From an uncultured Mycoplasmatota bacterium (GTDB lineage Bacteria > Bacillota_I > Bacilli_A > RF39 > UBA660): a DNA stretch of 64,000 bases. Position 1 is the first letter of the stretch. Each line of letters starts with the position of its first letter. The translations under genes were made by a program, and so were the position numbers. The stretch spans positions 3,266 through 67,265 of the forward strand of contig CAOKBR010000001.1 of the NCBI GenBank assembly GCA_948466735.1. The letters are read 5' to 3'. The notes beneath the pieces are model-generated. The model was not told the DNA's origin. It was given only the letters and a program-made list of their open reading frames with translations, and ran no database searches. Below, piece after piece: positions 6,579 through 45,861 of the stretch.

Positions 6579-6794
6579 ATGTTAACATTAAACATCCAAT
6601 TGTTTGCTGTACCCTTTCATAGAGTAAGTAAAACAAGAAAGAGAATGAGAAGAAGTCATAATGCCCTAACAGCACCAGGAACCAATAGATGTCCTAACTG
6701 TGGAGAAATGATTAAACCCCATCGTGTTTGTAAAAAATGTGGTTACTACAAAGGACGTGAAGTAGTAGCAAATACTAAGAATGCCGAAGAATAG
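6579..6794 (+). CDS. rpmF: 50S ribosomal protein L32
   Basis: '[18 protein letters not shown]...[25 protein letters not shown]' is the L32 signature. A strong AGGAG RBS precedes the start. The true start may be a few codons downstream. Confidence 0.85.
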
Positions 6795-6861
6795 TTCGGT
6801 TTTTTTATGCTCTATTTCAATTAGTGTAAAGAGTTTGGGGTATTTTTAGAAAATCTTAACT

Positions 6862-7228: not shown

Positions 7229-7996
7229 TTGATTGTATACGTTGATTTATTTATGATATTAAATTTCTTTTTTGACTTATTTCTTTTGCTAAGTACAACC
7301 TCTTTTTTTAAACGCTATATAAAATGGTATCGACTCATTTTTGGTGCTGTCCTTGGTTTACTTAGTACATTGGTATTATTTTATTCTATATCTAACATAA
7401 TGCTACTTCTATTTCAAGGTGTTATTAGCTTATTAATGATAATTGCAACCTTTGGTTTTTCAGATATTTTAACATTAGGAAAACAACTTGCTATTTTTTA
7501 TTTTCATTCTTTGATTTTAGGAGGTTTTCTTACCCTTTTAAAACAACATTTTTCCTATAGCAACGCCATATGGCTTTTTATCTTAATTTTAAGCCCCATA
7601 TTTTTATATCTTTATGTAAAAATGATGAAAAGTGAAAAAAGTAAAATAAAACTACATTACAAAATAGAATTATTTCTTAATTCAAAAACGACATTACATT
7701 TAAATGCTTACTTAGATACAGGAAACCAACTTTATGAGCCTTATCATCATCATCCAGTGGTGCTAGTAAAGGAAAAACTAATCCCCATTAAAAAAATAAA
7801 AAAAGAACACATTTTACTAATTCCCTATGAAACCATTAGTGAAACTTCATTAATTAAATGTATAAAGATAGATAAAATGAGGATTGACTCAACTAGGGAA
7901 TATTTTGATGTATTTGTAGGACTTTGTGGAAATAAAGTAAATTTAGGAAATTATGATATGTTATTACATGTCGATTATAAGGAGGAGATAAAATGA
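7229..7996 (+). CDS. spoIIGA: sporulation sigma-E processing peptidase SpoIIGA
   Basis: TTG start. The polytopic N-terminus 'MIVYVDLFMILNFFFDLFLLL' matches B. subtilis SpoIIGA 'MKIYLDVIWLLNFCFD'. The C-terminal aspartic-protease motif 'LDTGNQLYEP' is present. It overlaps sigE by 4 nt. Confidence 0.8.
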   Translation: MIVYVDLFMILNFFFDLFLLLSTTSFFKRYIKWYRLIFGAVLGLLSTLVLFYSISNIMLLLFQGVISLLMIIATFGFSDILTLGKQLAIFYFHSLILGGFLTLLKQHFSYSNAIWLFILILSPIFLYLYVKMMKSEKSKIKLHYKIELFLNSKTTLHLNAYLDTGNQLYEPYHHHPVVLVKEKLIPIKKIKKEHILLIPYETISETSLIKCIKIDKMRIDSTREYFDVFVGLCGNKVNLGNYDMLLHVDYKEEIK

Positions 7997-8682
7997 TTGC
8001 TTTATTATTAACAATTGGAGTATTAATTACCCATCAACATCAAATATTTTATGTAGGGGCAACAGATGTTTTACCTGAACCATTATCAAAGGAAATGGAA
8101 GAGTATTATCTAAATTTGGCAATGGATGGAGATACTTTTGCTAAGGACAAGTTAATTGAACATAATTTGCGATTAGTAGTGTTTCTTGCTAAGAAGTATG
8201 AAAACACAAAGATTGATTTAGAAGATTTAGTAAGTATTGGTACCATTGGTTTAATTAAAGGAATTAACACCTTTAGCATGGATAAAAACATTAAGTTAGC
8301 AACATACGCTTCAAGATGTATTGATAATGAGATTTTAATGTATTTAAGAAAAAATAAGAAAATAAAAACTGAGGTAAGCTTTGATGAGAGCCTAAGTTTT
8401 GATGCAGATGGAAATGAGTTGCATTTAGAGGATATTTTAGGAACAGAAGAAGATTTAGTAACTAAGGGATTAGAGAAAGAAACCGAGAGGAAATTATTAC
8501 TAAATGAAATTAGTAGATTAGACCCTAGAGATAGAGATATTATTGTGTTACGTTATGGACTAATGAATCACCGTGAGTTAACTCAAAAAGAGGTAGCTGA
8601 CTTATTAGGAATTAGTCAATCTTATATTTCAAGAATTGAAAAGAAGATTATTAATAGGTTAAAGGCGGTAATTAAATATTAG
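7993..8682 (+). CDS. sigE: RNA polymerase sporulation sigma factor sigma-E (pro-sigma-E)
   Basis: Near-identical blocks to B. subtilis SigE: 'LPEPLSKEME', 'NLRLVVFLAKKYENT', 'SIGTIGLIKGINTF', 'KLATYASRCIDNEILMYLR', 'GISQSYISRIEKK'. An N-terminal pro-sequence is present. Confidence 0.9.
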   Translation: MIALLLTIGVLITHQHQIFYVGATDVLPEPLSKEMEEYYLNLAMDGDTFAKDKLIEHNLRLVVFLAKKYENTKIDLEDLVSIGTIGLIKGINTFSMDKNIKLATYASRCIDNEILMYLRKNKKIKTEVSFDESLSFDADGNELHLEDILGTEEDLVTKGLEKETERKLLLNEISRLDPRDRDIIVLRYGLMNHRELTQKEVADLLGISQSYISRIEKKIINRLKAVIKY

Positions 8683-9110: not shown

Positions 9111-9377
9111 TTAAAATAGAAAATAAAAATACTAATAGTCAAACAATTAAATTAGGCGCTTTAGGAGGCTTAGAAAATCAAACATTAACTCTACCAAGTG
9201 ATGGGCATTTATTTGGATTATATCAACAAACACCAACAAAAGAGGCTTCTTTTATTATTAACAAATATAAAAGTTAAATAATATGAACGATAAGTAAAAA
9301 GTCTAAAATAAAAGGAGAAAATAATTGCTTTTCTTCTTTCCTTTCGTTTATAATAATAATAAGTGTAGGAGGCGGAT

Positions 9378-9974
9378 ATGGCGAAGTTATATTTTAGATA
9401 TGGTGCGATGAATGCTGGAAAAAGTACATTACTAATGCAAGCAGCTTATAATTATGAGCAGCAAGGAATGAAAGTTTTAATTTTTAAACCAAGCGTGGAT
9501 ACTAAGGGAGATGAGTATTTAGTATCAAGAATTGGATTAAAAAGAAAAGTAGATGCCATAATAAAAAAAGAAGATTCCTTAATAGAAATCGTTAATCGAT
9601 TAAACCTGGAAGCTAGTTGCATTTTTGTAGATGAAGCACAATTTTTAACCAGCGGACAAGTAGACGAATTAATGGAAATCGTTGTATTTTTAAATATTCC
9701 AGTCATTTGTTATGGACTTCGATGTGACTTTTTAGGACAAGCTTTTGAAGGAAGTAGTCGTCTTTTATCGATAGCTCATACCATTGAAGAAATGAAAACC
9801 ATTTGCACCTGTGGAAAAAAAGCAATGTATAATGTACGACTAAAAAATGGAAAATATGTATTTTCTGGGAATCAGATTTTAATAGATGGAGATAATAATG
9901 ATATCAGCTACACTTCATTATGCCCAGTGTGCTATTACCATATAAGAAAAAAAGTAGAAGAAGGGAACGATTAA
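9378..9974 (+). CDS. tdk: thymidine kinase
   Basis: 'GAMNAGKST' P-loop, 'FVDEAQF', and a C-terminal Zn ribbon 'CTCGKKA...CPVC'. Confidence 0.9.
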   Translation: MAKLYFRYGAMNAGKSTLLMQAAYNYEQQGMKVLIFKPSVDTKGDEYLVSRIGLKRKVDAIIKKEDSLIEIVNRLNLEASCIFVDEAQFLTSGQVDELMEIVVFLNIPVICYGLRCDFLGQAFEGSSRLLSIAHTIEEMKTICTCGKKAMYNVRLKNGKYVFSGNQILIDGDNNDISYTSLCPVCYYHIRKKVEEGND

Positions 9975-22176: not shown

Positions 22177-22185
22177 AAAAATGTC

Positions 22186-22370
22186 TAGAAGATACGTGTA
22201 ATACATCCAATAGTATAAAACCGACTAAGTTAACGATACGGGAGCATCGAGCAATCGCTGGTGTTGAATACCCATACATTTCTATGGGGATCCTAAAGGC
22301 GATGTAGATGCACCCACCTGTACAAATGCAGGTTTTATCGTTAGGATGACGGTCTTCTGGATTTTTTTGT
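22186..22370 (+). ncRNA. GC-richer structured leader or small RNA upstream of the tcdA-like gene; class not identified
   Basis: A roughly 185-nt segment with much higher GC than its surroundings. Local hairpin cccata-catttc-tatggg. 5' 'ctagaaga' can pair with 3' 'tcttctgg', followed by atttttttgtttt. The next gene's RBS follows directly. Confidence 0.3.
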
Positions 22371-23920: not shown

Positions 23921-23999
23921 ATTAAATCAAACTTCAATAAAGGATATAACATTAAAAACTCTAATTCAATAAGGATAAAGAATTAGAGTTTTCTTTTTC

Positions 24000-24608
24000 T
24001 CAAAACTTTCGATACAAAGAGATAACTTTTCCTAAAATTGTTTTATCTTCTAGAGAAAGTTCTTCTTGATTTACTTTTAACATTTCTTGATTATCACTTT
24101 TTAAATATTGTCCAACTAAAAGGTGGTTCTTACTTGTTAATACGACGATTATATCGTTAATACTTACTGCACTTTTCTCTTCAATTACTAAAATATCTTG
24201 GTTAAAAATACCAGCGTTCATCATTTCATTCCCTCGCACGATTAAGGCAAATCCATTCTTTTGATTAGAAGTGATTGCTACTGGTAATTTAATAATTTCA
24301 CTAGCTAAACTTAATAATTCTTTTATATTACCTTTTAAATTCATATCAATAAGAGGAATTGAAATAATCCCATCTTTTTTATCCTGATACTCATTAGGTA
24401 CCAATAATTCAATGGTTCTATTTTTGCCAAGTCCTTTTTTCAAATATCCTTTTTCTTCTAATAAAGTAATATGCGCATGAATCGTTGCACTAGAACGTAA
24501 ATTAATCATTGTACCAATTTCTCTTACGGTAGGAGGATACCCATTTTTTGCCATAAATATTTTAATTGCTTCTAAAACTCGCTCTTGCTTACTTGTTAAT
24601 TGTTCCAT
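24000..24608 (-). CDS. lexA: LexA-family repressor homolog; S24 catalytic Ser apparently substituted
   Basis: N-terminal wHTH 'GYPPTVREIGTMINLRSSATIHAHITLLEEKGYL' is typical LexA. The C-terminal S24-like domain reads 'VRGNEMMNAGI' where LexA has 'GDSM'. Confidence 0.65.
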   Translation of the reverse strand: MEQLTSKQERVLEAIKIFMAKNGYPPTVREIGTMINLRSSATIHAHITLLEEKGYLKKGLGKNRTIELLVPNEYQDKKDGIISIPLIDMNLKGNIKELLSLASEIIKLPVAITSNQKNGFALIVRGNEMMNAGIFNQDILVIEEKSAVSINDIIVVLTSKNHLLVGQYLKSDNQEMLKVNQEELSLEDKTILGKVISLYRKF

Positions 24609-24664
24609 TGCCTTTCTTCCACCTCATTCTTCGTTTATCATAGCATAAAAATCTTACCATTGTC

Positions 24665-24676
24665 AAACAAACGTTC
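24665..24676 (-). promoter_or_regulatory. candidate degenerate Cheo/LexA box (GAAC-N4-GTTT) in the lexA-polA divergent region
   Basis: Minus strand reads GAACGTTTGTTT. Consensus is CGAAC-N4-GTTCG; one half-site is imperfect. Confidence 0.25.
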
Positions 24677-24754
24677 ATAAAATTTTCAGTACCAAATAAA
24701 AGATTTCATGTTATAATAAACTACATAGCAAAATGGATTAAAGGAGAAGTAAGG

Positions 24755-27379
24755 ATGAAAAAAATTGTTTTAGTAGACGGAAATAATCTATTATTTAGAA
24801 GTTATTATGCAACAGCTTATAACGGAGTAATTATGCGTAATTCCAAAGGATTTCCAACGAACGCCGTTTATGGTTTTTTAAATATGATAAATAAAATTAT
24901 CGAAGAAGAAACACCTAGTTATATGATTGTTGCTTTTGATAGAGGAAAGACCTTTCGTCACGAACAATACGATTGGTATAAAGCAGGAAGACGTGAAACC
25001 CCACAGGATTTAATTGATCAATTTCCAATTGCCAAAGAATTTTTGGATTATCTTGGAATATTTCATTATGAAATTGATAACTATGAAGCAGATGATATCA
25101 TTGGAACCATAGCAAAAAAAATCGATGAGGAACCTGAGTTTTTAGGAACTATCATAAGTAGTGATAAAGACCTTTTACAATTAATTAGTCCTAAAGTCGT
25201 TGTTAAATTATTAAAGCAATCTAGTCATATTTTAATGAATGTGGACACTTTTCATGAAACTTATGGAATTGACCCCATTAACATGATTGATTTAAAGGCG
25301 TTGATGGGAGATTCATCAGATAATATTCCAGGAGTAAAAGGAATTGGCGAAAAAACAGCTCTACAATTACTACAAAAATATAAAACACTAGATGGAATTT
25401 ATGAGTGTCTTCCTTTAATTGGCGGAAAAACAGAAGATAAACTTCGTCTTGAAGAAAAACAGGCTTATATGAGTTATGATATTGCAACAATTTACCGAGA
25501 AGTGCCACTTGAATTTTCTTTAGAAGATTTAAAAATTAAACCCATTAATTATGAAGAATATCTTACCTTACTTGAAGTAATGGAGTTTAACTCCTTAATT
25601 CGTAAATTAAATCAGCAAGGAAATATTCCTCAAATTAAGCCTAAAGAATCAAAGAAAGATGTTAAAAAAGTGATATATGTTAGTTCCCTTAGTCAATTAG
25701 TATTAGATGAAGATTATGCTTTTTATTTAGATACTATCGGTAGCAATTATCATGATTGTCTAGTGCGGGGAGTAAGTTTTTATAATGAAAAGGTAAACTA
25801 TTATGTACCATTTGATCTATTAAAGGATGATTATACGATTTTTAATAGTACATTGGCAAAGTATACATATGATGTGAAAAAGGCTGTTGTGATTTTTAAT
25901 CGTTATCATATTCCTTATCAAAATTTAGTCTATGATGCAATGATTGCAACTTATTTACTAAATTATGATGTAAAAGATGATGTTGCTCATGTTGCTAAAT
26001 ATTTTGATCATGATATTCCCTATCACGAGGATGTCTTTGGAACTGAAAAAAGACCTAAGAAAGTAGAAGATTTAGTGATTTATCAAATCTCTTGTGATAA
26101 GGCAATGTTTATTTTTGAAACCAAAATAGAGATTTTACAACGACTAGAGAAAGAAGAGCAACTTCATTTATATCAAGATATTGAGTTTCCCCTTGCTTTT
26201 GTTTTAGCAAAAATGGAGATAGAAGGAATTTATGTGGATAAGGGTTATCTAGAAGAAATGGGTAAGGAATTAAAGGTTAAAATTGATGATTTAGCTAAGG
26301 ACATTTATGAATTTGCTAATATGGAATTTAATATTTTATCAACAAAGCAACTTGGAGAAATCCTATTTGAAAAAATGGCTATTCCATATCCTAAAAGGGT
26401 AAAAGATGGAACTTATTCCACTAGTAAAGACATTTTAGAAAAATTAATAGGGGTACACCCAATTATTGAGAAAATCTTGGAGTACCGTACTTTATCAAAG
26501 CTTTATGCGAATTACACTGTTGGATTGATTGATGAAATTAGGGATGATGGTAAAATTCATACCATTTATACTCAGACGTTAACTAGAACAGGAAGACTTT
26601 CTAGTGTAAGCCCAAATTTACAAAATATTCCTGCAAAACTTGAATATGGAAGACTAGTTCGAAAAGCATTTATTCCAAGAGAAAATGGTTATTTGTTATC
26701 TAGTGATTATTCACAAATTGAACTTAGAATGTTTGCTCATATGTCGCAAGCAGAAAACTTGATTTTAGCATTTAAAAGTGGAGAAGATATTCACACTAAA
26801 ACGGCAGCGGATATTTTTAAAGTCGATATTACTGATGTAACGAAAGAGATGAGAAGAGCTGCAAAAGCGGTAAATTTTGGTATTATTTATGGAATTAGTA
26901 GTTTCGGTTTAAGTGAAGACTTGAAGATTGATTTAAAAAGTGCTAAAGATTTTATCGATACCTATTTAGATACTTATCCTGGAATTAGGGAATACATGAG
27001 TGAAGAAGTAAAAGATGCTTATCGCGATGGATTTGTGAAAACGATAATGAATCGTAAGAGAAATATCGAAGAATTACACAGTAAAAATTATATGGTACGT
27101 CAGCAAGGAGAGCGAATGGCTTTAAATACGCCTGTTCAAGGAAGTGCTGCTGATATTTTGAAAAAAGCGATGTTAGAGATTGATAAAGAGTTTTCTAAAC
27201 GTCATTTAAAAAGTAAAATGCTTCTTCAAGTACACGATGAACTTGTCTTTGATTGCTTAGAAAATGAATTAGAAGAAATTAAAGAATTAGTAAGAGGAAT
27301 TATGGAGAATGTGTATCCTTTATTGGTACCATTAAAAGTAGAAATATCAATAGGAAAAAATTGGTATGAAGCGAAGTAG
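24755..27379 (+). CDS. polA: DNA polymerase I
   Basis: 874 aa. 5'-3' exonuclease N-terminus ('LVDGNNLLFRSYYA'), polymerase motif A 'LLSSDYSQIELR' and motif C 'QVHDELVFD'. Confidence 0.95.
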   Translation: MKKIVLVDGNNLLFRSYYATAYNGVIMRNSKGFPTNAVYGFLNMINKIIEEETPSYMIVAFDRGKTFRHEQYDWYKAGRRETPQDLIDQFPIAKEFLDYLGIFHYEIDNYEADDIIGTIAKKIDEEPEFLGTIISSDKDLLQLISPKVVVKLLKQSSHILMNVDTFHETYGIDPINMIDLKALMGDSSDNIPGVKGIGEKTALQLLQKYKTLDGIYECLPLIGGKTEDKLRLEEKQAYMSYDIATIYREVPLEFSLEDLKIKPINYEEYLTLLEVMEFNSLIRKLNQQGNIPQIKPKESKKDVKKVIYVSSLSQLVLDEDYAFYLDTIGSNYHDCLVRGVSFYNEKVNYYVPFDLLKDDYTIFNSTLAKYTYDVKKAVVIFNRYHIPYQNLVYDAMIATYLLNYDVKDDVAHVAKYFDHDIPYHEDVFGTEKRPKKVEDLVIYQISCDKAMFIFETKIEILQRLEKEEQLHLYQDIEFPLAFVLAKMEIEGIYVDKGYLEEMGKELKVKIDDLAKDIYEFANMEFNILSTKQLGEILFEKMAIPYPKRVKDGTYSTSKDILEKLIGVHPIIEKILEYRTLSKLYANYTVGLIDEIRDDGKIHTIYTQTLTRTGRLSSVSPNLQNIPAKLEYGRLVRKAFIPRENGYLLSSDYSQIELRMFAHMSQAENLILAFKSGEDIHTKTAADIFKVDITDVTKEMRRAAKAVNFGIIYGISSFGLSEDLKIDLKSAKDFIDTYLDTYPGIREYMSEEVKDAYRDGFVKTIMNRKRNIEELHSKNYMVRQQGERMALNTPVQGSAADILKKAMLEIDKEFSKRHLKSKMLLQVHDELVFDCLENELEEIKELVRGIMENVYPLLVPLKVEISIGKNWYEAK

Positions 27380-27387
27380 GTGATTTT

Positions 27388-28242
27388 ATGCCAGAAAAAC
27401 CAGAAGTAATTACAGTTGCTAAGACACTAGAGCGACATATTTTAGGAAAAACGATTGAAAAGGTGGATATCTATTGGGATAATATTATTGAGTATCCTTC
27501 TCTTAGTGAGTTTAAAAAGCGCATATCTAGACAAATTATTAAGAAGATTTCCACTAGAGGAAAATGGATTGTAATGGAATTATCTAATGACTATTTATTG
27601 GTTCATCTTAGAATGGAAGGAAAGTTTTTTTACCGTGGGATAAATGATTCTAGAGGAAAACATGAACACGTGGTAATTACTTTTACTGATGGACTTCAAT
27701 TACGTTTTCATGATACAAGAAAATTTGGGAAATTTCGTCTGATGAACAAAGAAGAATGGAACAAAGTCCCTCCATTATCTCTTTTAGGATATGAGTATAA
27801 CGATAAAAATTTAACTAAGGAATATTTATATCAAGCTTTAAAGTCAAGAAAGTTACCCATTAAAACGGTATTACTTGATCAAAGTATTATAGCAGGAATT
27901 GGAAATATTTATGATGATGAGATTTTATTTCTTAGTCATTTGTCACCGTTAATGAGTGCGAATAAAGTTAGTTTAGATAGTTGCCAAGAAATTATTGATA
28001 ATACTAAAAAGGTACTTGACTCTGCTATAGCACTAGGGGGGACAACGATTCGTTCATATACTTCTGATGAAGGAGTACATGGAAAGTTTCAACAAATGCT
28101 TTTAGTCCATGGCAAAGAAAATGAATTATGTCCAGTTTGTGGCAATACCATTATCAAAATCAAAGTCGGTGGTAGAGGAACGTATTATTGTAAAAAATGC
28201 CAAAAAGATAAGATAAATTCTAAAGGAGAAAGATTAAAATGA
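27388..28242 (+). CDS. mutM: formamidopyrimidine-DNA glycosylase
   Basis: N-terminal 'MPEKPEV', H2TH region, C-terminal zinc finger 'CPVCGNTIIKIKVGGRGTYYCKKCQ'. Confidence 0.9.
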   Translation: MPEKPEVITVAKTLERHILGKTIEKVDIYWDNIIEYPSLSEFKKRISRQIIKKISTRGKWIVMELSNDYLLVHLRMEGKFFYRGINDSRGKHEHVVITFTDGLQLRFHDTRKFGKFRLMNKEEWNKVPPLSLLGYEYNDKNLTKEYLYQALKSRKLPIKTVLLDQSIIAGIGNIYDDEILFLSHLSPLMSANKVSLDSCQEIIDNTKKVLDSAIALGGTTIRSYTSDEGVHGKFQQMLLVHGKENELCPVCGNTIIKIKVGGRGTYYCKKCQKDKINSKGERLK

Positions 28243-29060: not shown

Positions 29061-29858
29061 GTGATGAAAGAAATGGAAAATGAAAAAATTGGCAAGTATA
29101 TTGCTACAAAAAGAAAAGAAAATGGACTAACACAAAATGAATTAGCACAAAAACTACAAGTAACTGATCGTGCTGTTTCCAAATGGGAACGAGGTAGGAG
29201 ATGCCCTGATATTAGTTTATTAGAACTATTAGCGAATCTACTAGGAGTTAGTGTTTTAGAGCTTTTACATGGCGAAGATATTAAAAAGGATGAAAATCAA
29301 GTACTTATACACTTATTAAAAAAGGAAGAAAATAGAATCAAACGCTGGAAAATATGTTCTTATGTCATGCTAAACTTACTTCTTTTCTTCTTTTGCAGTA
29401 TCTTTTTTCTTGGTGTGATTTTTCCTTTTATCGTAGAAAATAATTCGTCTTTAAATAGCTACCAAATCATATCAGAAAGTATGGCTCCAAAATATGGTGT
29501 TTACGATATGGTTTACACAAAAAAGGTACCTTTTGATAAAGTGAAAGTAAATGATGTTATTGCTTATCAGGAAAATATTAACGGAGTAAATATGATTATC
29601 ATTCACCGAGTGTACGATAGAGAAAATAATGATTTATCTTGTTTAATTACTAAAGGGGATAACAATAACAAAATAGATGAATATTGCCTTTCTTCTAAAA
29701 ATTATTTAGGAAAAGTAGTATTTCATGTTCCACTTTTTGGAAAATTCTTAAAAGAAAATAAGAAAATTTCTCCTTTTTATAGCATAATGTTAGCACTTGG
29801 CATAGGAAGTATTCTCTATTTAGATTATCTAGCAATAAGAAAAACAAGAAGCATTTAG
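29061..29858 (+). CDS. fusion protein: XRE-family HTH domain, TM segment, then ER/archaeal-type signal peptidase I (S26B, SipW-like) domain
   Basis: HTH 'LTQNELAQKLQVTDRAVSKWERG'. Hydrophobic segment 'LLLFFFCSIFFLGVIFPFIV'. Peptidase boxes 'ISESMAP' (SGSMEP-like), 'IIHRV' and 'TKGDNN'. C-terminal TM. Confidence 0.55.
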   Translation: MMKEMENEKIGKYIATKRKENGLTQNELAQKLQVTDRAVSKWERGRRCPDISLLELLANLLGVSVLELLHGEDIKKDENQVLIHLLKKEENRIKRWKICSYVMLNLLLFFFCSIFFLGVIFPFIVENNSSLNSYQIISESMAPKYGVYDMVYTKKVPFDKVKVNDVIAYQENINGVNMIIIHRVYDRENNDLSCLITKGDNNNKIDEYCLSSKNYLGKVVFHVPLFGKFLKENKKISPFYSIMLALGIGSILYLDYLAIRKTRSI

Positions 29859-29896
29859 AAAAAAAGTCTCTACTTAACACTTGACACAAAAATTTC

Positions 29897-29925
29897 TTGA
29901 CTATTTACGTAAAGAAAGCTACAAT
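29897..29925 (+). promoter_or_regulatory. sigma-A type promoter TTGACT-17-TACAAT
   Basis: TTGACT at 29897-29902, a 17-nt spacer, then TACAAT at 29920-29925; GGAGG RBS downstream. Confidence 0.4.
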
Positions 29926-29949
29926 GATATTAGGAGGGTGATAGGCAAA

Positions 29950-30717
29950 GTGGAGAATTTAAATCAGTTGTTAGTGGAACTTGGAATTTCAAAGGTACGT
30001 TTAGCAAAATATTTAGGTGTTTCTAGACAAATGCTTTATAATTATCTTGCTAATCCTTCTTTAGATGATTGGCCAAAAGAAAAAGCAGTTCGATTACTTA
30101 GTTTACTAGGAATCAAATCTAAAGACGACTTGGGTCAATTAAAAGTGACAAACGAGTATATTCTAGAAGTAGAAAGTAAATTAAACGAGGGAGTGAAAGA
30201 TACTTCTAATCACGAAGTTTTAGCAGATTTAAAAGGATTCAATAAAAAAGAACAAGAAGTATTATCGAATCTTATTCAATTATTAAAAGAAAAACTACAA
30301 AATGATAAGACAAAAGAAACTTATTATGCTTATCGATATTTGTATCATTTCCTTCAGTCTATGGATACAACGAAGGAAATTAAATACATTTTAGGATATA
30401 TGTCTAAGGCTTTAGGATTTACTAATCCCATGGAGTTTGTGTTTAATCAAGAAAATCAATTTACTTTTGAGGGAATTATGTTTTCAGCAATGACTTTATA
30501 CACTAATGGTGGAGCATCAAGAAATAAAATTGTTGATTCACATCGACGTTTCATTCAAAAAATTGAACACAGCAAAGAAGAAACATTGAGCCGTACACAA
30601 GAGCTAACTACGGCTAAGGCACAAGCTTTAAAAGAACTGGGTTATACAGAAATCAACGAAGAAAATGCTAAAGAAGTGTTAGAAAAAATAGCGGAGATAC
30701 AATCTCGTGGAGTATAG
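29950..30717 (+). CDS. HTH-domain protein, putative transcriptional regulator
   Basis: The track ORF 29881.. overlaps the promoter. Probable GTG start at 29950 after GGAGG. N-terminal 'LLVELGISKVRLAKYLGVSRQMLYNYL' is HTH-like. Confidence 0.4.
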   Translation: MENLNQLLVELGISKVRLAKYLGVSRQMLYNYLANPSLDDWPKEKAVRLLSLLGIKSKDDLGQLKVTNEYILEVESKLNEGVKDTSNHEVLADLKGFNKKEQEVLSNLIQLLKEKLQNDKTKETYYAYRYLYHFLQSMDTTKEIKYILGYMSKALGFTNPMEFVFNQENQFTFEGIMFSAMTLYTNGGASRNKIVDSHRRFIQKIEHSKEETLSRTQELTTAKAQALKELGYTEINEENAKEVLEKIAEIQSRGV

Positions 30718-37762: not shown

Positions 37763-37791
37763 AGAAAACAAAAAGAACCGAAGTCCTTTTT
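37763..37791 (-). terminator. rho-independent terminator after essC (minus strand)
   Basis: Minus strand reads aaaaaggac-UUCG-gttcttttt then gtttt; the stem has one G.U pair. Confidence 0.4.
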
Positions 37792-40700
37792 ATAAAATCT
37801 CCTCGATATTATCATTACCACTTTGATTAGCCTCACTAGTCGTGTTAGAAGTAATTTTTGTAGAATCAAACTCTTCGATAAATTTAACTTGTACTGGACG
37901 ACTACGTGTTACAACAAAGCCAAAGTATGGTGGTAACTCTTCTCGATGTTCCCTAGTCACTTTGTTAATTTTTAAGGTAAATTGATCTCCTAAACCATTC
38001 CCTAAGTAAATTCCATAATTTGGATTTACCACATTTTTATACCAGGATTCTAGCTCTAGTCGTTTTGCTTTCTCCACATTTGCTACAATAATAAAGTGAA
38101 TTAATCCTAGGAATTTGCCCTTTTCTAAGACGCTTGCTAATAAGCTTCTATTTTCTTCATTTAACTTACTTCTAAAAGCATCAAATCCAATAATTGTACA
38201 AATAATCTTCTTTCTACTTGCAATAAAGTCTCTATTTTGATTTTTTTCTTGATATTCTATGAAAACGTCATCAATTGTTTTTTTCAACCATAAGAAGATT
38301 TCATCAAATTCTTTTTCATAATAGGAATATCCAGCATTAGGCTTAAATCCAACAATTTCTTCGGCATTAATCACTAAAACTTGTTCACGATTTAAATAGA
38401 CTAACTCATTGGTTAACGCCTTATAAAAACTAGAAAACTCTAAAATATCTTGTCCTAGAATTAAATTGACATACTGCTTAGTAAAATTAAATCCCAGTGG
38501 TTCTAAGTTTTCTTTTGCAATACCTAAAATAGGTAGTCCATTCTTTAAATAAGGATAAACATGTTTCGTTTCTACTCGTTTTGGTAAAATAGGAATGCTT
38601 CTAGCCTTTTCAAATTTTTCTGCCAAATGAGAAACGACCTTTCTAATATAATCAGGAATTTGATCAACTGGTGATACAAACGCGGTTTGAAATTCATATA
38701 TTTCTCCAAGATTTACTAAACCTCGACCTAGTATTTTTGACGGATACATTTTTTGAACATTTCCTAAAATATTACTATAATCCATGACATTCGTTTGTTG
38801 AAGTACGTACTCCATCGCAAAATTTTGTCTTACTTTAAAGCGAATGCCATTTAAATTGTTGATGGTTAACACAAAATAAATCCCATATTTTGGGGCTTCC
38901 CTTGTTAACTGGAAGAACTCATCTTCATACTTACTAAATGACTCTTGATAAGCTTCATAATTATTAATAACAACCACAATTTGAGGAATTTCCTTTCCAC
39001 TTTGCTGTAAAAAACCTTGAATAGTTCCATTAAATGGTGCAAACAATTGTTTTCTTTTTTCAATAATATCATCCATCATTTTATAAAAGTTATCCATTTT
39101 CTCATCTTCAGTCACTGTGATAATATCACCTACTTGTGGAGCATTTTCAAAACTTTTTAGCGTCTCTGATCCAAAGTCTAGTAAATAAATATTTACTTCA
39201 TTCGTTGTATATGTAGTAATTAACGAGTAAAATAATGTCGTTAAAAAGTTTTCTTTACCGCTACCAGTCATTCCATAGATAATTGCATTACCATTTTCAC
39301 TAAAAGGAATAGTTAACAAAGATTGACTTTGCTTATTTGGCATATCATATTCTCCAACAATGGGATTGATTATATGTTTTACTTTTTGGTATTGATACTT
39401 TTGAATTAAGCCTTGAACAGCAATATAACTAGGAAGTTTCTCTAACCATAAAGGACGCACCTTAATATTTATCTGTTTTGCCGCTTGAATTAAATAAGTA
39501 ACAATATTACTTAACTCTTCCCCGTGAGCTTCTATTTTTTCTTTTTTATGTTCAACATCCACTTCATGATAAATCACACCAATGTCATCAATAAATTCCA
39601 GCTTAGTATCCACTTCTTTTCTTGGCTTATCAACAGGTAAATAAGTTGCACCGCACCATGCTGCTTGACCTAAGACAAAAATTTCATTATATCCTACTTG
39701 TAAATAAAATCTTCCTGTTTGCGTTAATAATGCAGCTTCAGGAGATTTAATTACCTCGGTACTATCAGATTTTTCTTGAACACGTAAACATACCCTAAAT
39801 CTTGTATTACTCCAAATTTGATTATCCACGATACCTGATGGTTTTTGTGTTGCTAAGATCAAGTGAACGCCTAGGCTTCTACCAATTCTAGCAGTAGAGA
39901 TCAACTGTTGCATAAATTCTGGTTGTTGTGTTTTTAACTCTGCAAATTCATCGGTAATGATAAATAAATGGGAAATGGCCTCATCAACCACCCCTGCTCG
40001 ATATAATTGTTGGTACTTATAAATATCAATCGTATTTTCTTTTGATTTAGCACGCGCTTCATTAAACATTCTCTGCCGACGCTTTAACTCACTATCAATT
40101 GATGCAAACGAACGTTTAATCTCAGTTGCATCCAAGTTAGTAATGGTTCCTACTAAATGTGGTAATCTCTCACCTGTTAAATGATTTTCTAAACTTCCAC
40201 TTAATCCTCCACCTTTATAGTCAATCAAAATAAATTGAACTTCTTCTGGATGATAATTAACTGCCATTGATAAAATGTAAGTAATTAAAAGTTCACTTTT
40301 ACCACTACCTGTCATTCCAGCAACTAAACCATGAGGTCCAGCGTATTTTTCATGTAAATCCAAGCGAATTAACTCTTGATTTTTTCCAACGCCAATAGGT
40401 GCTTGTAATGATTGAATCGGGTTATTTTTCTGCCATCTAGAAATCGCATTTAACTGTTCCACAGTACCAATTTGATACATATTTAAAAAGCTTAACTTAC
40501 TTGGTAGTTTTCCTTCCACATTTAAAGTAATATCTAAAGGAATATTGGCTAAGACTCTAGCGCATTCTTCTAATTCTAAAGGGGTTGTAAAATCAATTTG
40601 AAATCTAGTTGTATTTGCGTTTAGTACATTGGCAAACAAATCAGAGTTTTTACTATTCGCATGAATAAACGTTTGACAAGATGTTGGAAGTGTTGATACA

Positions 40701-42439
40701 TTATCATTTAAGATAATCACACTAAAGCCCATATTCTTCTTACTTTCTAAAATGTGATTAATAAAATCAAAGTGTCGAACAGCTTTAAAATCGTCAATAA
40801 TTAATAAATAATGAAAAGGTATTGTATCCTCTTCTATTCTTTTTGATAAGTCGTGTTCTAGAAAATAACAAACTTCTTTTATATCGTCAGTATTAGAAGC
40901 AAAAAAACGCATTTTTTTATCATCACGGAAACAGTGAGGTAGAAATTTACTAAACTTCCAATCTTCCTTTTGACATTCATTAGTAAAAATTACAATTTTT
41001 AAATCATCATAAGAATGAAATGCCACAAGTTGTAAAATAATATTTTCAATCAATCTTTGGTTGACCTTTCTATTACCGATGATAGCGACAATATATTGTT
41101 CAACTAATGATAACGTAATAGGAACATCTACTAAATTTTTAGGTTCACTCCCTAGCGAATTTAGCATTTCTCGTAAATTATCTTCTTCTAAAGTAAAATG
41201 TTCTACTGGATAGTCAATACTAATTTTCATTGGAATAGTACCCATTCCAAGGCTTACCGTTAAAAAGTCTTGCTCTTCCTTTTTTCGCTCCCACAAATTA
41301 AATTTTTGATGAAGAATTACTTGTTTACATTCTTCTAGTGATAAATTATTTTCTAATAAAATATGTCTTTGCTGACGAATGGTATCAATAATTACTTGAC
41401 GTTTTTCTTCGATATATTCTCTATATTTCTTTTGACGTTTGGCTTCTTGCTTTTTTTGTTTTCTCTTATCAAAACGATTTGTTACAATAGGCCATAAAAT
41501 AACCGATGACATCATCGCTACACACATGACAATCGATGGTAAGACATTAATTAACTTAGCATTATTGTTTACTACATTATTAACAGCAACTAATCCCATC
41601 ATAGCAGATGACATTCCCATGGTAACCATTGGTCCTATAATAAGTAATAAAGGTCGATCATCTTCATTTACCTTGCTAGGAGGAGGGTCAATCACCATTT
41701 TTAATTCAGTTAAAATCGCCCGAAATCTAGGTTTTTTATGAAAATATGATGAGTCTTGATAAAGTTCTAACTCAATAAGTTCGTCACTTTCATTAACTGG
41801 AGCGATATATTCTTTTATTTGTTCTAAGATTAAAGGCGTTTTACACACCACTTTTTGAAAAGGCGAATTCACATTTAATAAAATTCCATCTTTTTTGATG
41901 ATAAAAACAATCTTTAATCCCATAAAAAATAAAATATCACCCGATGTTAATGCTTTAGGTTCAATTAATAATTGATGATTTAAATATACATTTTGATCAT
42001 GCATAAGATTACTAAGAATATATGATCCATTTTGATAAGTAATCTTTGCTTGAGTTGGCTTTAAGTATTCACTAGGATAGCAAATTGTATCTTCTTTGCT
42101 ACTACCAATAGTAATTTCACTTAGTAGCTCTACACGATAAAAACGATTACTAGAATCTAATAAAGGAGCCATGTATAAATACATTAACTCATGTGTCGAT
42201 ACATTTTCTAACGTATAAAAATGATACTCCTCTAAAACAACACTAGGAATCGTCATTCCCTGTTGTTTTATTGCCACTTCATAATTACTTAGTAAAACCC
42301 AATGATTTTCTTGTGCTACTACATTAATTAAGTTATCTTCACTATTAGCAAATAAATCTTTTATCCAGTAATTACCAAAAACTTGACGAGGAAGGGCAAA
42401 ATTTTTCATTTTTCCATTTTTTATGATGGACCCTTGCAT
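37790..42439 (-). CDS. essC: type VII secretion system FtsK/SpoIIIE-family ATPase EssC (YukB-like)
   Basis: 1549 aa. N-terminal FHA-like region, two TM helices, and three FtsK-type ATPase domains ('GMTGSGKSE', 'GMTGSGKEN', plus a third degenerate one). Confidence 0.9.
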   Translation of the reverse strand: MQGSIIKNGKMKNFALPRQVFGNYWIKDLFANSEDNLINVVAQENHWVLLSNYEVAIKQQGMTIPSVVLEEYHFYTLENVSTHELMYLYMAPLLDSSNRFYRVELLSEITIGSSKEDTICYPSEYLKPTQAKITYQNGSYILSNLMHDQNVYLNHQLLIEPKALTSGDILFFMGLKIVFIIKKDGILLNVNSPFQKVVCKTPLILEQIKEYIAPVNESDELIELELYQDSSYFHKKPRFRAILTELKMVIDPPPSKVNEDDRPLLLIIGPMVTMGMSSAMMGLVAVNNVVNNNAKLINVLPSIVMCVAMMSSVILWPIVTNRFDKRKQKKQEAKRQKKYREYIEEKRQVIIDTIRQQRHILLENNLSLEECKQVILHQKFNLWERKKEEQDFLTVSLGMGTIPMKISIDYPVEHFTLEEDNLREMLNSLGSEPKNLVDVPITLSLVEQYIVAIIGNRKVNQRLIENIILQLVAFHSYDDLKIVIFTNECQKEDWKFSKFLPHCFRDDKKMRFFASNTDDIKEVCYFLEHDLSKRIEEDTIPFHYLLIIDDFKAVRHFDFINHILESKKNMGFSVIILNDNVSTLPTSCQTFIHANSKNSDLFANVLNANTTRFQIDFTTPLELEECARVLANIPLDITLNVEGKLPSKLSFLNMYQIGTVEQLNAISRWQKNNPIQSLQAPIGVGKNQELIRLDLHEKYAGPHGLVAGMTGSGKSELLITYILSMAVNYHPEEVQFILIDYKGGGLSGSLENHLTGERLPHLVGTITNLDATEIKRSFASIDSELKRRQRMFNEARAKSKENTIDIYKYQQLYRAGVVDEAISHLFIITDEFAELKTQQPEFMQQLISTARIGRSLGVHLILATQKPSGIVDNQIWSNTRFRVCLRVQEKSDSTEVIKSPEAALLTQTGRFYLQVGYNEIFVLGQAAWCGATYLPVDKPRKEVDTKLEFIDDIGVIYHEVDVEHKKEKIEAHGEELSNIVTYLIQAAKQINIKVRPLWLEKLPSYIAVQGLIQKYQYQKVKHIINPIVGEYDMPNKQSQSLLTIPFSENGNAIIYGMTGSGKENFLTTLFYSLITTYTTNEVNIYLLDFGSETLKSFENAPQVGDIITVTEDEKMDNFYKMMDDIIEKRKQLFAPFNGTIQGFLQQSGKEIPQIVVVINNYEAYQESFSKYEDEFFQLTREAPKYGIYFVLTINNLNGIRFKVRQNFAMEYVLQQTNVMDYSNILGNVQKMYPSKILGRGLVNLGEIYEFQTAFVSPVDQIPDYIRKVVSHLAEKFEKARSIPILPKRVETKHVYPYLKNGLPILGIAKENLEPLGFNFTKQYVNLILGQDILEFSSFYKALTNELVYLNREQVLVINAEEIVGFKPNAGYSYYEKEFDEIFLWLKKTIDDVFIEYQEKNQNRDFIASRKKIICTIIGFDAFRSKLNEENRSLLASVLEKGKFLGLIHFIIVANVEKAKRLELESWYKNVVNPNYGIYLGNGLGDQFTLKINKVTREHREELPPYFGFVVTRSRPVQVKFIEEFDSTKITSNTTSEANQSGNDNIEEIL

Positions 42440-45606: not shown

Positions 45607-45861
45607 CTATAACAATATGAGTTTAGTACCATTCCGAATATCTGTTTGTTCTAAAAGCATTTGATCTAAATATTCTTCATGAGTAATTTGATTGAGTAGA
45701 GTATAGGCATATGTCGAGATATACCTTCCATCAGATAATTCGCCAACGGCCTTTTTTAATAATTTTTTAATCGAACCTATGGTTAATTGAATAGGTAAAA
45801 ATATATCGTATTCTTCTTCAATCAAAGGGACAAATAGACGCACCAATACTTTGTTTTTCAA
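45607..45861 (-). CDS. esaB: EsaB/YukD-like small ubiquitin-fold T7SS protein
   Basis: 84 aa, GGAGG RBS, first gene of the cluster. Size and position match YukD/EsaB. The sequence match itself is weak. Confidence 0.45.
   Translation of the reverse strand: MKNKVLVRLFVPLIEEEYDIFLPIQLTIGSIKKLLKKAVGELSDGRYISTYAYTLLNQITHEEYLDQMLLEQTDIRNGTKLILL

Follow-up and report, generated by a model that had tools for sequence, protein, structure and literature searches.

A lexA ortholog that has lost its self-cleavage determinants in an uncultured gut lineage of the Bacilli

A 64-kb stretch of DNA from the metagenome-assembled genome (MAG) of an uncultured gut member of the Bacilli (assembly GCA_948466735.1, contig CAOKBR010000001.1, positions 3,266 to 67,265; 30% GC; hereafter, the window) encodes an ortholog of the repressor LexA in which the scissile Ala-Gly bond, the nucleophilic Ser, and the general-base Lys have all been replaced. 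Our data suggest that this protein is a dimeric, autoregulated, LexA-derived repressor that is no longer inactivated by RecA-stimulated self-cleavage, a reading to which we assign, from the sequence, a probability of about 0.65.

Replacement of the self-cleavage determinants

By descent and architecture, the window protein is a member of the LexA family. A preliminary description of this DNA had called it a LexA homolog with a canonical N-terminal winged helix-turn-helix (wHTH) domain, and our searches led to the same assignment: PF01726 matched this domain over its full length (Table 1), and synteny marks the gene as a positional ortholog of canonical lexA. The 202-residue protein scored 115.7 bits against the NCBIfam lexA equivalog model TIGR00498, barely clearing the cutoff of 110.95 bits, and automated annotation will, therefore, label the gene an ordinary "transcriptional repressor LexA". 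The closest solved structures found by phmmer among PDB chains were LexA of T. maritima (2.8e-19) and then that of E. coli. The closest canonical LexA belongs to a cluster (P0004/P0122, from locus L038) that is 52% identical to the window protein, and the recognition-helix segment SSATIHAHI is the same in P0004 and in the window LexA.

All three determinants of self-cleavage have changed. The canonical cleavage loop V-T-A-G-x-P ("vtaGeP") reads N-L-K92-G93-N-I in the window LexA, the Ser motif "G-[ED]-S-M" reads G-N-E128-M ("VRGNEMM"), and the Lys motif T-V-K-x-F reads L-V-G166-Q-Y ("LLVGQYL"). Four independent alignments agree on these positions, including phmmer against LexA chains of the PDB, MAFFT, in which the closest homologs were aligned with LexA of E. 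coli and of B. subtilis, and a hidden Markov model (HMM) of canonical LexA. This model, built from 120 canonical sequences, aligned with the protein without gaps over residues 1–183 and with maximal posterior probability at all three sites. The preliminary description had read the Ser motif by eye as "G-N-E-M" and had doubted the Lys; E128 occupies the Ser column in all four alignments and G166 the position of the Lys in each of them. The HMM alignment, a check set in advance, restored neither a Ser/Lys dyad nor an intact Ala-Gly and showed the alignment made by eye to be unshifted. The loss of the scissile Ala-Gly is a point absent from that description.

The canonical A-G, S, and K were present at the three columns in 120 of 130 aligned sequences (128 homologs from the databases and two references, LexA of E. 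coli and of B. subtilis), and the triple replacement is, therefore, not normal variation. Since Ala-Gly, Ser, and Lys are all replaced, we infer that RecA-stimulated self-cleavage cannot occur. The window LexA appears to be non-cleavable and is probably no longer a classic damage-triggered switch; it may act as a constitutive repressor, as had been proposed. Cleavage by a partner protease, which the preliminary description also allowed, is less plausible for enzymes of the LexA, UmuD, or S24 type, as the Ala-Gly bond has gone too. A protein that fails three catalytic features, as far as its residues tell, is not to be treated as a functional S24 peptidase.

Table 1 Features of lexA and its surroundings, in positions of the window.
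Feature	Coordinates	Strand	Remarks
lexA ortholog	24000..24608	-	202 aa, ATG start, TGA stop; LexA wHTH plus degenerate Peptidase_S24-fold domain
N-terminal LexA winged-HTH DNA-binding domain	24414..24608	-	Residues 1-65; PF01726 LexA_DNA_bind, 4e-19, model positions 1-65 of 65
C-terminal S24-fold domain without catalytic residues	24024..24302	-	Residues 103-195; PF00717 Peptidase_S24, 4.8e-9, 36.4 bits against a gathering cutoff of 23.3
K92-G93 at the scissile Ala-Gly position	24330..24335	-	Codons AAA GGT, read directly; alignments
E128 at the nucleophilic Ser position (E. coli S119)	24225..24227	-	Codon GAA, read directly; alignments
G166 at the general-base Lys position (E. coli K156)	24111..24113	-	Codon GGA, read directly; alignments
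Last beta-strand, TILGKVISLYRKF	24003..24041	-	Residues 190-202; best conserved C-terminal segment, presumed dimer contact
Putative LexA box (box 1); lexA strand TGAACGTTTGTTTG, + strand CAAACAAACGTTCA	24664..24677	-	GAAC-N4-GTTT type; overlaps the lexA -35 element
lexA promoter	24637..24666	-	TTGACA, 18-nt spacer, TATGAT, TG before the -10; 11 of 12 consensus positions, best site of the region
polA promoter, extended -10 (TGTTATAAT)	24709..24717	+	No LexA box; sequence read
Divergent polA-fpg operon	24755..28242	+	polA at 24755-27379; fpg by TIGR00577; conserved syntenic neighbour
AT-rich hairpin, AACTCTAATTC...GAATTAGAGTT	23957..23990		Between the cmpB-like gene and lexA; read by eye, no terminator-scan call (fewer than 3 G-C pairs)

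Locus, operators, and selection on the two domains

The window gene occupies the chromosomal position that canonical lexA has in related MAGs, divergent from polA as the preliminary description had stated. A sister species (locus L008) has the same gene order, with protein identities of 89% for PolA, 89% for the CmpB-like protein, 81% for Fpg, and 76% for ThiF. The layout recurs in L038, where polA-fpg is divergent from lexA and genes for ThiF and an alpha/beta-hydrolase lie downstream, and the arrangement of polA-fpg and lexA is also common to L021, which encodes another canonical LexA. Because the polA-fpg, lexA, and ThiF locus is common to canonical loci, the window gene is an ortholog that took the place of canonical lexA and not a spare paralog. 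It differs from the canonical genes in carrying K92-G93, E128, and G166, in its faster-evolving C-terminal domain, and in that the "RLQPEN" segment of canonical LexA is unrecognisable. The MAGs of related loci are labelled "uncultured Bacilli bacterium", "Clostridium sp. CAG:524", and "uncultured Erysipelotrichaceae bacterium" and come from the guts of humans, rabbit, deer, and other hosts.

The partial Cheo-like box described earlier is present upstream of lexA (box 1, Table 1). A box of the form (A/G)AAC-N4-GTTTG occurs at an equivalent position (about -55 to -69 relative to lexA) in L008 and in at least 20 canonical relatives, and an alignment of the intergenic sequence of the window with those of L008, L038, and L021 showed box 1 to be clearly conserved. 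The putative autoregulatory site is, on this comparison, retained at the window lexA. On the polA side, the two canonical loci carry a consensus GAAC-N4-GTTC box (box 2) in the promoter spacer (L038, AGAACAAGTGTTCG, ~9890–9910; L021, CGAACACTTGTTCA, ~9905–9925), which implies that polA-fpg would be SOS-regulated in canonical relatives. Intergenic alignment showed box 2 to be gone from the homologous polA promoter in the window and in L008, and L040, a locus encoding the degenerate LexA P0141, has neither a clean box 1 nor box 2. These observations, from few loci, suggest operator erosion after the loss of inducibility.

Besides box 1, no intergenic GAAC-N4-GTT[CT] site was found in the 64-kb window. 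A box-like site at 6785–6798 was rejected, being the stem of the rpmF terminator: rpmF (L32; 6580–6810, + strand) has at its end a hairpin, CCGAAGAATAGTTCGG, with a T-run after it. The hairpin differs from a Cheo box by one mismatch and would be a false positive in scans for SOS boxes. A second site (45635–45648) apparently lies inside a minus-strand coding sequence, judged by eye only, and the remaining matches in the window are intragenic; the total number of matches is no higher than in shuffled sequence. A search for inverted repeats in the lexA-polA intergenic region found none with default seeds; each half-site of the operator spans just 4 bases. The AT-rich hairpin on the other side of lexA is likely a bidirectional terminator, which would make lexA monocistronic.

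Selection on the two domains of LexA was compared between the window and L008 using nonsynonymous (dN) and synonymous (dS) divergence. Residues 1–73 were 90% identical (dN 0.062, dS 0.58, dN/dS 0.11), against 43% identity from residue 74 to the end (dN 0.46, dS 0.93, dN/dS 0.49). The dN/dS of the C-terminal domain is thus ~4–7 times that of the DNA-binding domain or of the neighbouring genes polA and cmpB-like (dN/dS 0.067 and 0.073, respectively, both at 89% identity). Pairs of canonical LexAs from far more distant genomes (PolA 50–60% identical) retain 65–73% identity in the C-terminal domain, whereas pairs that include any degenerate LexA share only 29–43%, with N-terminal identity unaffected (60–90%). 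In addition, the two nearest relatives of the window protein, P0002 and P0121 (from L008), lack ~16 C-terminal residues. Population variants were uninformative as a test of selection: six fetched contigs had at least 99.9% DNA identity to the window, and their lexA differed by one synonymous change.

The last beta-strand, TI[LV]GKVI[SG]LYRKF, is near-invariant within the window's degenerate clade, and "GKVIGLYRKF" is retained in every degenerate LexA group (alignment A7). In LexA structures, the C-terminal strand forms the dimer contact, and the strand of the window LexA may have been kept as a dimer scaffold. The picture that emerges from these comparisons is of purifying selection on DNA binding and collapsed constraint on the protease core, with a retained scaffold that would hold the dimer contact.

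Other genes of the window were noted in passing. A 6S RNA (Rfam RF00013, 71.7 bits) lies at 22179–22367 (+ strand), between the alpha/beta-hydrolase and ThiF-family genes. A gene at 29061–29858 (+ strand) encodes a 265-residue protein that looks like an unusual membrane-tethered HTH-peptidase, with an XRE-type HTH_3 domain (residues 14–68), a hydrophobic segment, and a SipW/SEC11-type signal peptidase I domain (TIGR02228, 4.2e-22; SEC11C in the PDB, 4.6e-5; Ser motif "SESMAP" present); a second HTH_3 protein follows at 29881–30717 (+ strand). The fusion was considered as a partner protease for LexA and set aside, as it is of S26/SEC11 type, is apparently membrane-anchored, and has no link to LexA. 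On the minus strand, positions 37790–42439 encode a type VII secretion ATPase, EssC of the Firmicutes type (1549 residues; TIGR03928, 1011.7 bits), and unannotated open reading frames (ORFs) around it may be substrates or accessory genes of the type VII secretion system. A spoIIGA-like gene (TIGR02854, 111.8 bits, below the cutoff of 209) overlaps a sigma-70-family gene at 7229–8682 (+ strand), and the same pair is found in L038. This pair resembles the module that processes pro-sigma-E in sporulation and is consistent with descent from spore-formers. The preliminary description had named the host a spore-forming Firmicute; these genes fit a spore-former lineage but do not prove that the host forms spores.

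Other degenerate LexAs and known non-cleavable repressors

The clade of the window protein is small. In a word-index search of 5.8 billion proteins with a profile of the degenerate C-terminal domains, it was represented by only three 90%-identity clusters, and in an exhaustive HMMER search of 1.84 billion representatives it amounted to a single 50%-identity cluster below 1e-30. Other degenerate LexAs of gut Bacilli (P0002, P0121, P0141, P0092, P0123–P0126) share its architecture and lack Ala-Gly, Ser, and/or Lys, but the lost residues and the deletions vary case by case, and some represent separate events. In P0092, Ala-Gly has become Asp-Thr and Ser has become Asn in an otherwise near-canonical protein; P0141 carries Val-Lys and Asp at these positions and is encoded, like the window LexA, beside polA and the ThiF gene; and P0123–P0126, of 170 residues, have the whole cleavage loop deleted and adjoin tkt. 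About 20 more 50%-identity representatives lack Ser and/or Lys, and the architecture of LexA_DNA_bind plus Peptidase_S24 was found in all 10 of the degenerate proteins that were checked. Degenerate LexAs were located at 9113–9721 in L040, 136–753 in L037, and 10001–10513 in L035; many more are among proteins P0133–P0252.

Identities of the neighbouring PolA bear on the number of losses. The window PolA is 64% identical to that of L038, which has a canonical LexA, and 59% identical to that of L040, which has a degenerate one; the closest PolA to that of L040 is from the canonical L021 (63%). At least two losses, in the window clade and in L040, therefore appear to be independent. A neighbour-joining tree united all degenerate LexAs (169 of 200 bootstraps), but we do not take this as monophyly, since the tree is probably affected by long-branch attraction and the PolA identities run counter to one common loss in the window clade and L040. 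We tentatively suggest, at odds well short of even, that the RecA-LexA self-cleavage switch has been dismantled repeatedly and independently across uncultured AT-rich gut Bacilli, with LexA kept as an autoregulated, non-proteolytic repressor and SOS operators, such as that of polA, eroding.

A natural non-cleavable LexA is already known from a cyanobacterium, and the window LexA adds a probable case from a different phylum. In LexA of Synechocystis PCC 6803 (sll1626), Ala-Gly is changed to Gly-Gly and Ser to Asp, and Lys is kept (PMC3091678, PMC1524924). It functions as a repressor of genes outside the SOS response, is not induced by DNA damage, and may be tuned through phosphorylation (PMC3091678, PMC1524924, PMC7567884), and no SOS-like box was found upstream of its gene (PMC1524924). 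Both are chromosomal LexAs that have lost the Ala-Gly site and the catalytic Ser, though of independent origin. The window protein differs in having lost all three determinants, Lys included, in retaining the ancestral autoregulatory box, and in a C-terminal domain that is visibly still decaying within its lineage. The preliminary description spoke of an unusual SOS arrangement: this holds to the extent that, for Erysipelotrichia, Mollicutes, or RF39-type Bacilli, our literature search turned up no report of a degenerate LexA, and the precedent in Synechocystis qualifies it. A paper on gp6, a "LexA homologue" of phage GIL01, held nothing relevant to the loss of catalytic residues.

Comparison with inducible LexAs sets these changes in context. 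B. subtilis LexA (DinR) and E. coli LexA share with the window protein the LexA wHTH and S24 fold, as well as a palindromic operator of GAAC-N4-GTTC-like type over their own promoter. Structures of the non-cleavable E. coli mutants S119A, K156A, and G85D (1jhh, 1jhf, and 1jhe) were among the structure matches of the window protein. The same three positions are changed in both, and single changes at them are the classic Ind- lesions of E. coli; however, the latter are single laboratory mutations in a domain otherwise intact, whereas the window protein has three natural changes in a domain that has since diverged. SipA of Streptococcus pyogenes was a weak Foldseek match to the model of the window LexA. 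It is a signal-peptidase-like protein of clan SF in which a Ser/Lys-peptidase fold has a non-catalytic role, though it belongs to an S26-like family, is extracellular, serves pilus assembly, and is no transcription factor.

Proposed mechanism, alternatives, and implications

Under the mechanism that we propose, a chromosomal lexA ortholog would have been converted into a non-proteolytic ("pseudo-peptidase") repressor. Its wHTH domain may bind the GAAC-N4-GTTT operator over its own -35 element, resulting in negative autoregulation, and the residual S24-fold domain would serve mainly as a dimerisation scaffold. K92-G93, E128, and G166 would preclude RecA-stimulated self-cleavage, and DNA damage would fail to switch the repressor off via the classical SOS route. 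The regulon may also be shrinking, the consensus LexA box of the canonical polA-fpg promoter having been lost here.

Several points weigh against this reading. Divergence at synonymous sites (dS ~0.6–1.0) is near saturation, which makes the dN/dS ratios rough, and the C-terminal dN/dS of 0.49, together with the deletions in P0002 and P0121, could also mean decay of the whole gene. The right half of box 1 overlaps TTGACA, such that its conservation is partly that of the promoter. An AlphaFold2 (AF2) model of the window LexA (mean pLDDT 85.5) had LexA structures as its best Foldseek matches, with target-normalised TM-scores of 0.85 for the C-terminal domain against that of M. tuberculosis LexA (rmsd 1.7 Å) and 0.89 for the N-terminal wHTH domain against 1lea; however, canonical LexAs dominate the input alignment, and the retained fold is partly imposed and weak evidence. 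Finally, the search for a second lexA, for recA, and for other S24 repressors covers the 64-kb window only; neither recA nor uvr genes were found within it.

Among the alternatives, we consider it unlikely that the repressor is still inducible by another route, be it Lon, ClpXP, or a partner peptidase, an anti-repressor, a ligand, or post-translational modification of the C-terminal domain. That domain has been kept and is not neutral, given its dN/dS of 0.49; its rapid change could mean adaptation to a new partner, and Synechocystis LexA is possibly tuned by post-translational modification (PMC7567884). Yet a C-terminal identity of 43% between sister species is more readily explained by relaxed constraint than by a new, conserved interface, the loss of Ala-Gly argues against trans-cleavage of the S24 type, and no candidate partner gene adjoins lexA.

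It is also rather improbable, in our assessment, that the gene is a decaying relic, left to drift toward loss without a regulatory role after the SOS circuit was abandoned in a reduced-genome gut lineage. Decay would fit the weak conservation of the C-terminal domain (dN/dS 0.49; 43% identity against a species with 89% PolA identity), the C-terminal deletions in sister lineages, the missing operator on the polA side, and the tiny size of the clade, which forms just one 50%-identity cluster in 1.84 billion representatives. The DNA-binding domain, however, is constrained like the housekeeping neighbours (dN/dS 0.11, 90% identity), and both the window and L008 have kept the promoter and operator. 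Three diverged lineages and nine contigs carry an unbroken ORF, and even the C-terminal dN/dS is below 1, with the last strand near-invariant.

Some bacteria carry two lexA genes, and a specialised extra paralog, with the SOS response run by a canonical, cleavable LexA encoded elsewhere, would agree with a second-lexA search that extends over the 64-kb window only. We regard this as quite improbable: tblastn with B. subtilis LexA found no second copy in the window, and the shared polA-fpg, lexA, and ThiF locus points to orthologous replacement in place. A sequencing or assembly artefact, or a shifted alignment with the dyad intact, was tested and can be dismissed almost entirely, as nothing was found in its favour, the identical 202-residue protein occurs on nine contigs that were assembled independently (Logan and ENA samples), and the four alignments agree, with the HMM alignment ungapped and of maximal posterior probability at the three sites.

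The bacterial SOS response, a driver of repair, mutagenesis, prophage induction, and evolution under antibiotics, is, to our knowledge, universally triggered by the self-cleavage of LexA. A LexA ortholog that is predicted to bind DNA but not to cleave itself implies a gut lineage in which damage-inducible SOS may be absent or rewired, and such a state would bear on the prophage induction and antibiotic-driven mutagenesis predicted for the microbiome. The window and its sister species also provide a clean natural case of what may become of a dual-function domain after catalysis is lost, with the protease core loosened and the DNA-binding domain and last beta-strand fixed. Recurrent loss of the SOS switch across the gut lineage is the more interesting possibility: if the switch has indeed been dismantled repeatedly, there would be commensal gut Bacilli without classical damage-inducible SOS, and their "LexA" annotations would be functionally misleading.

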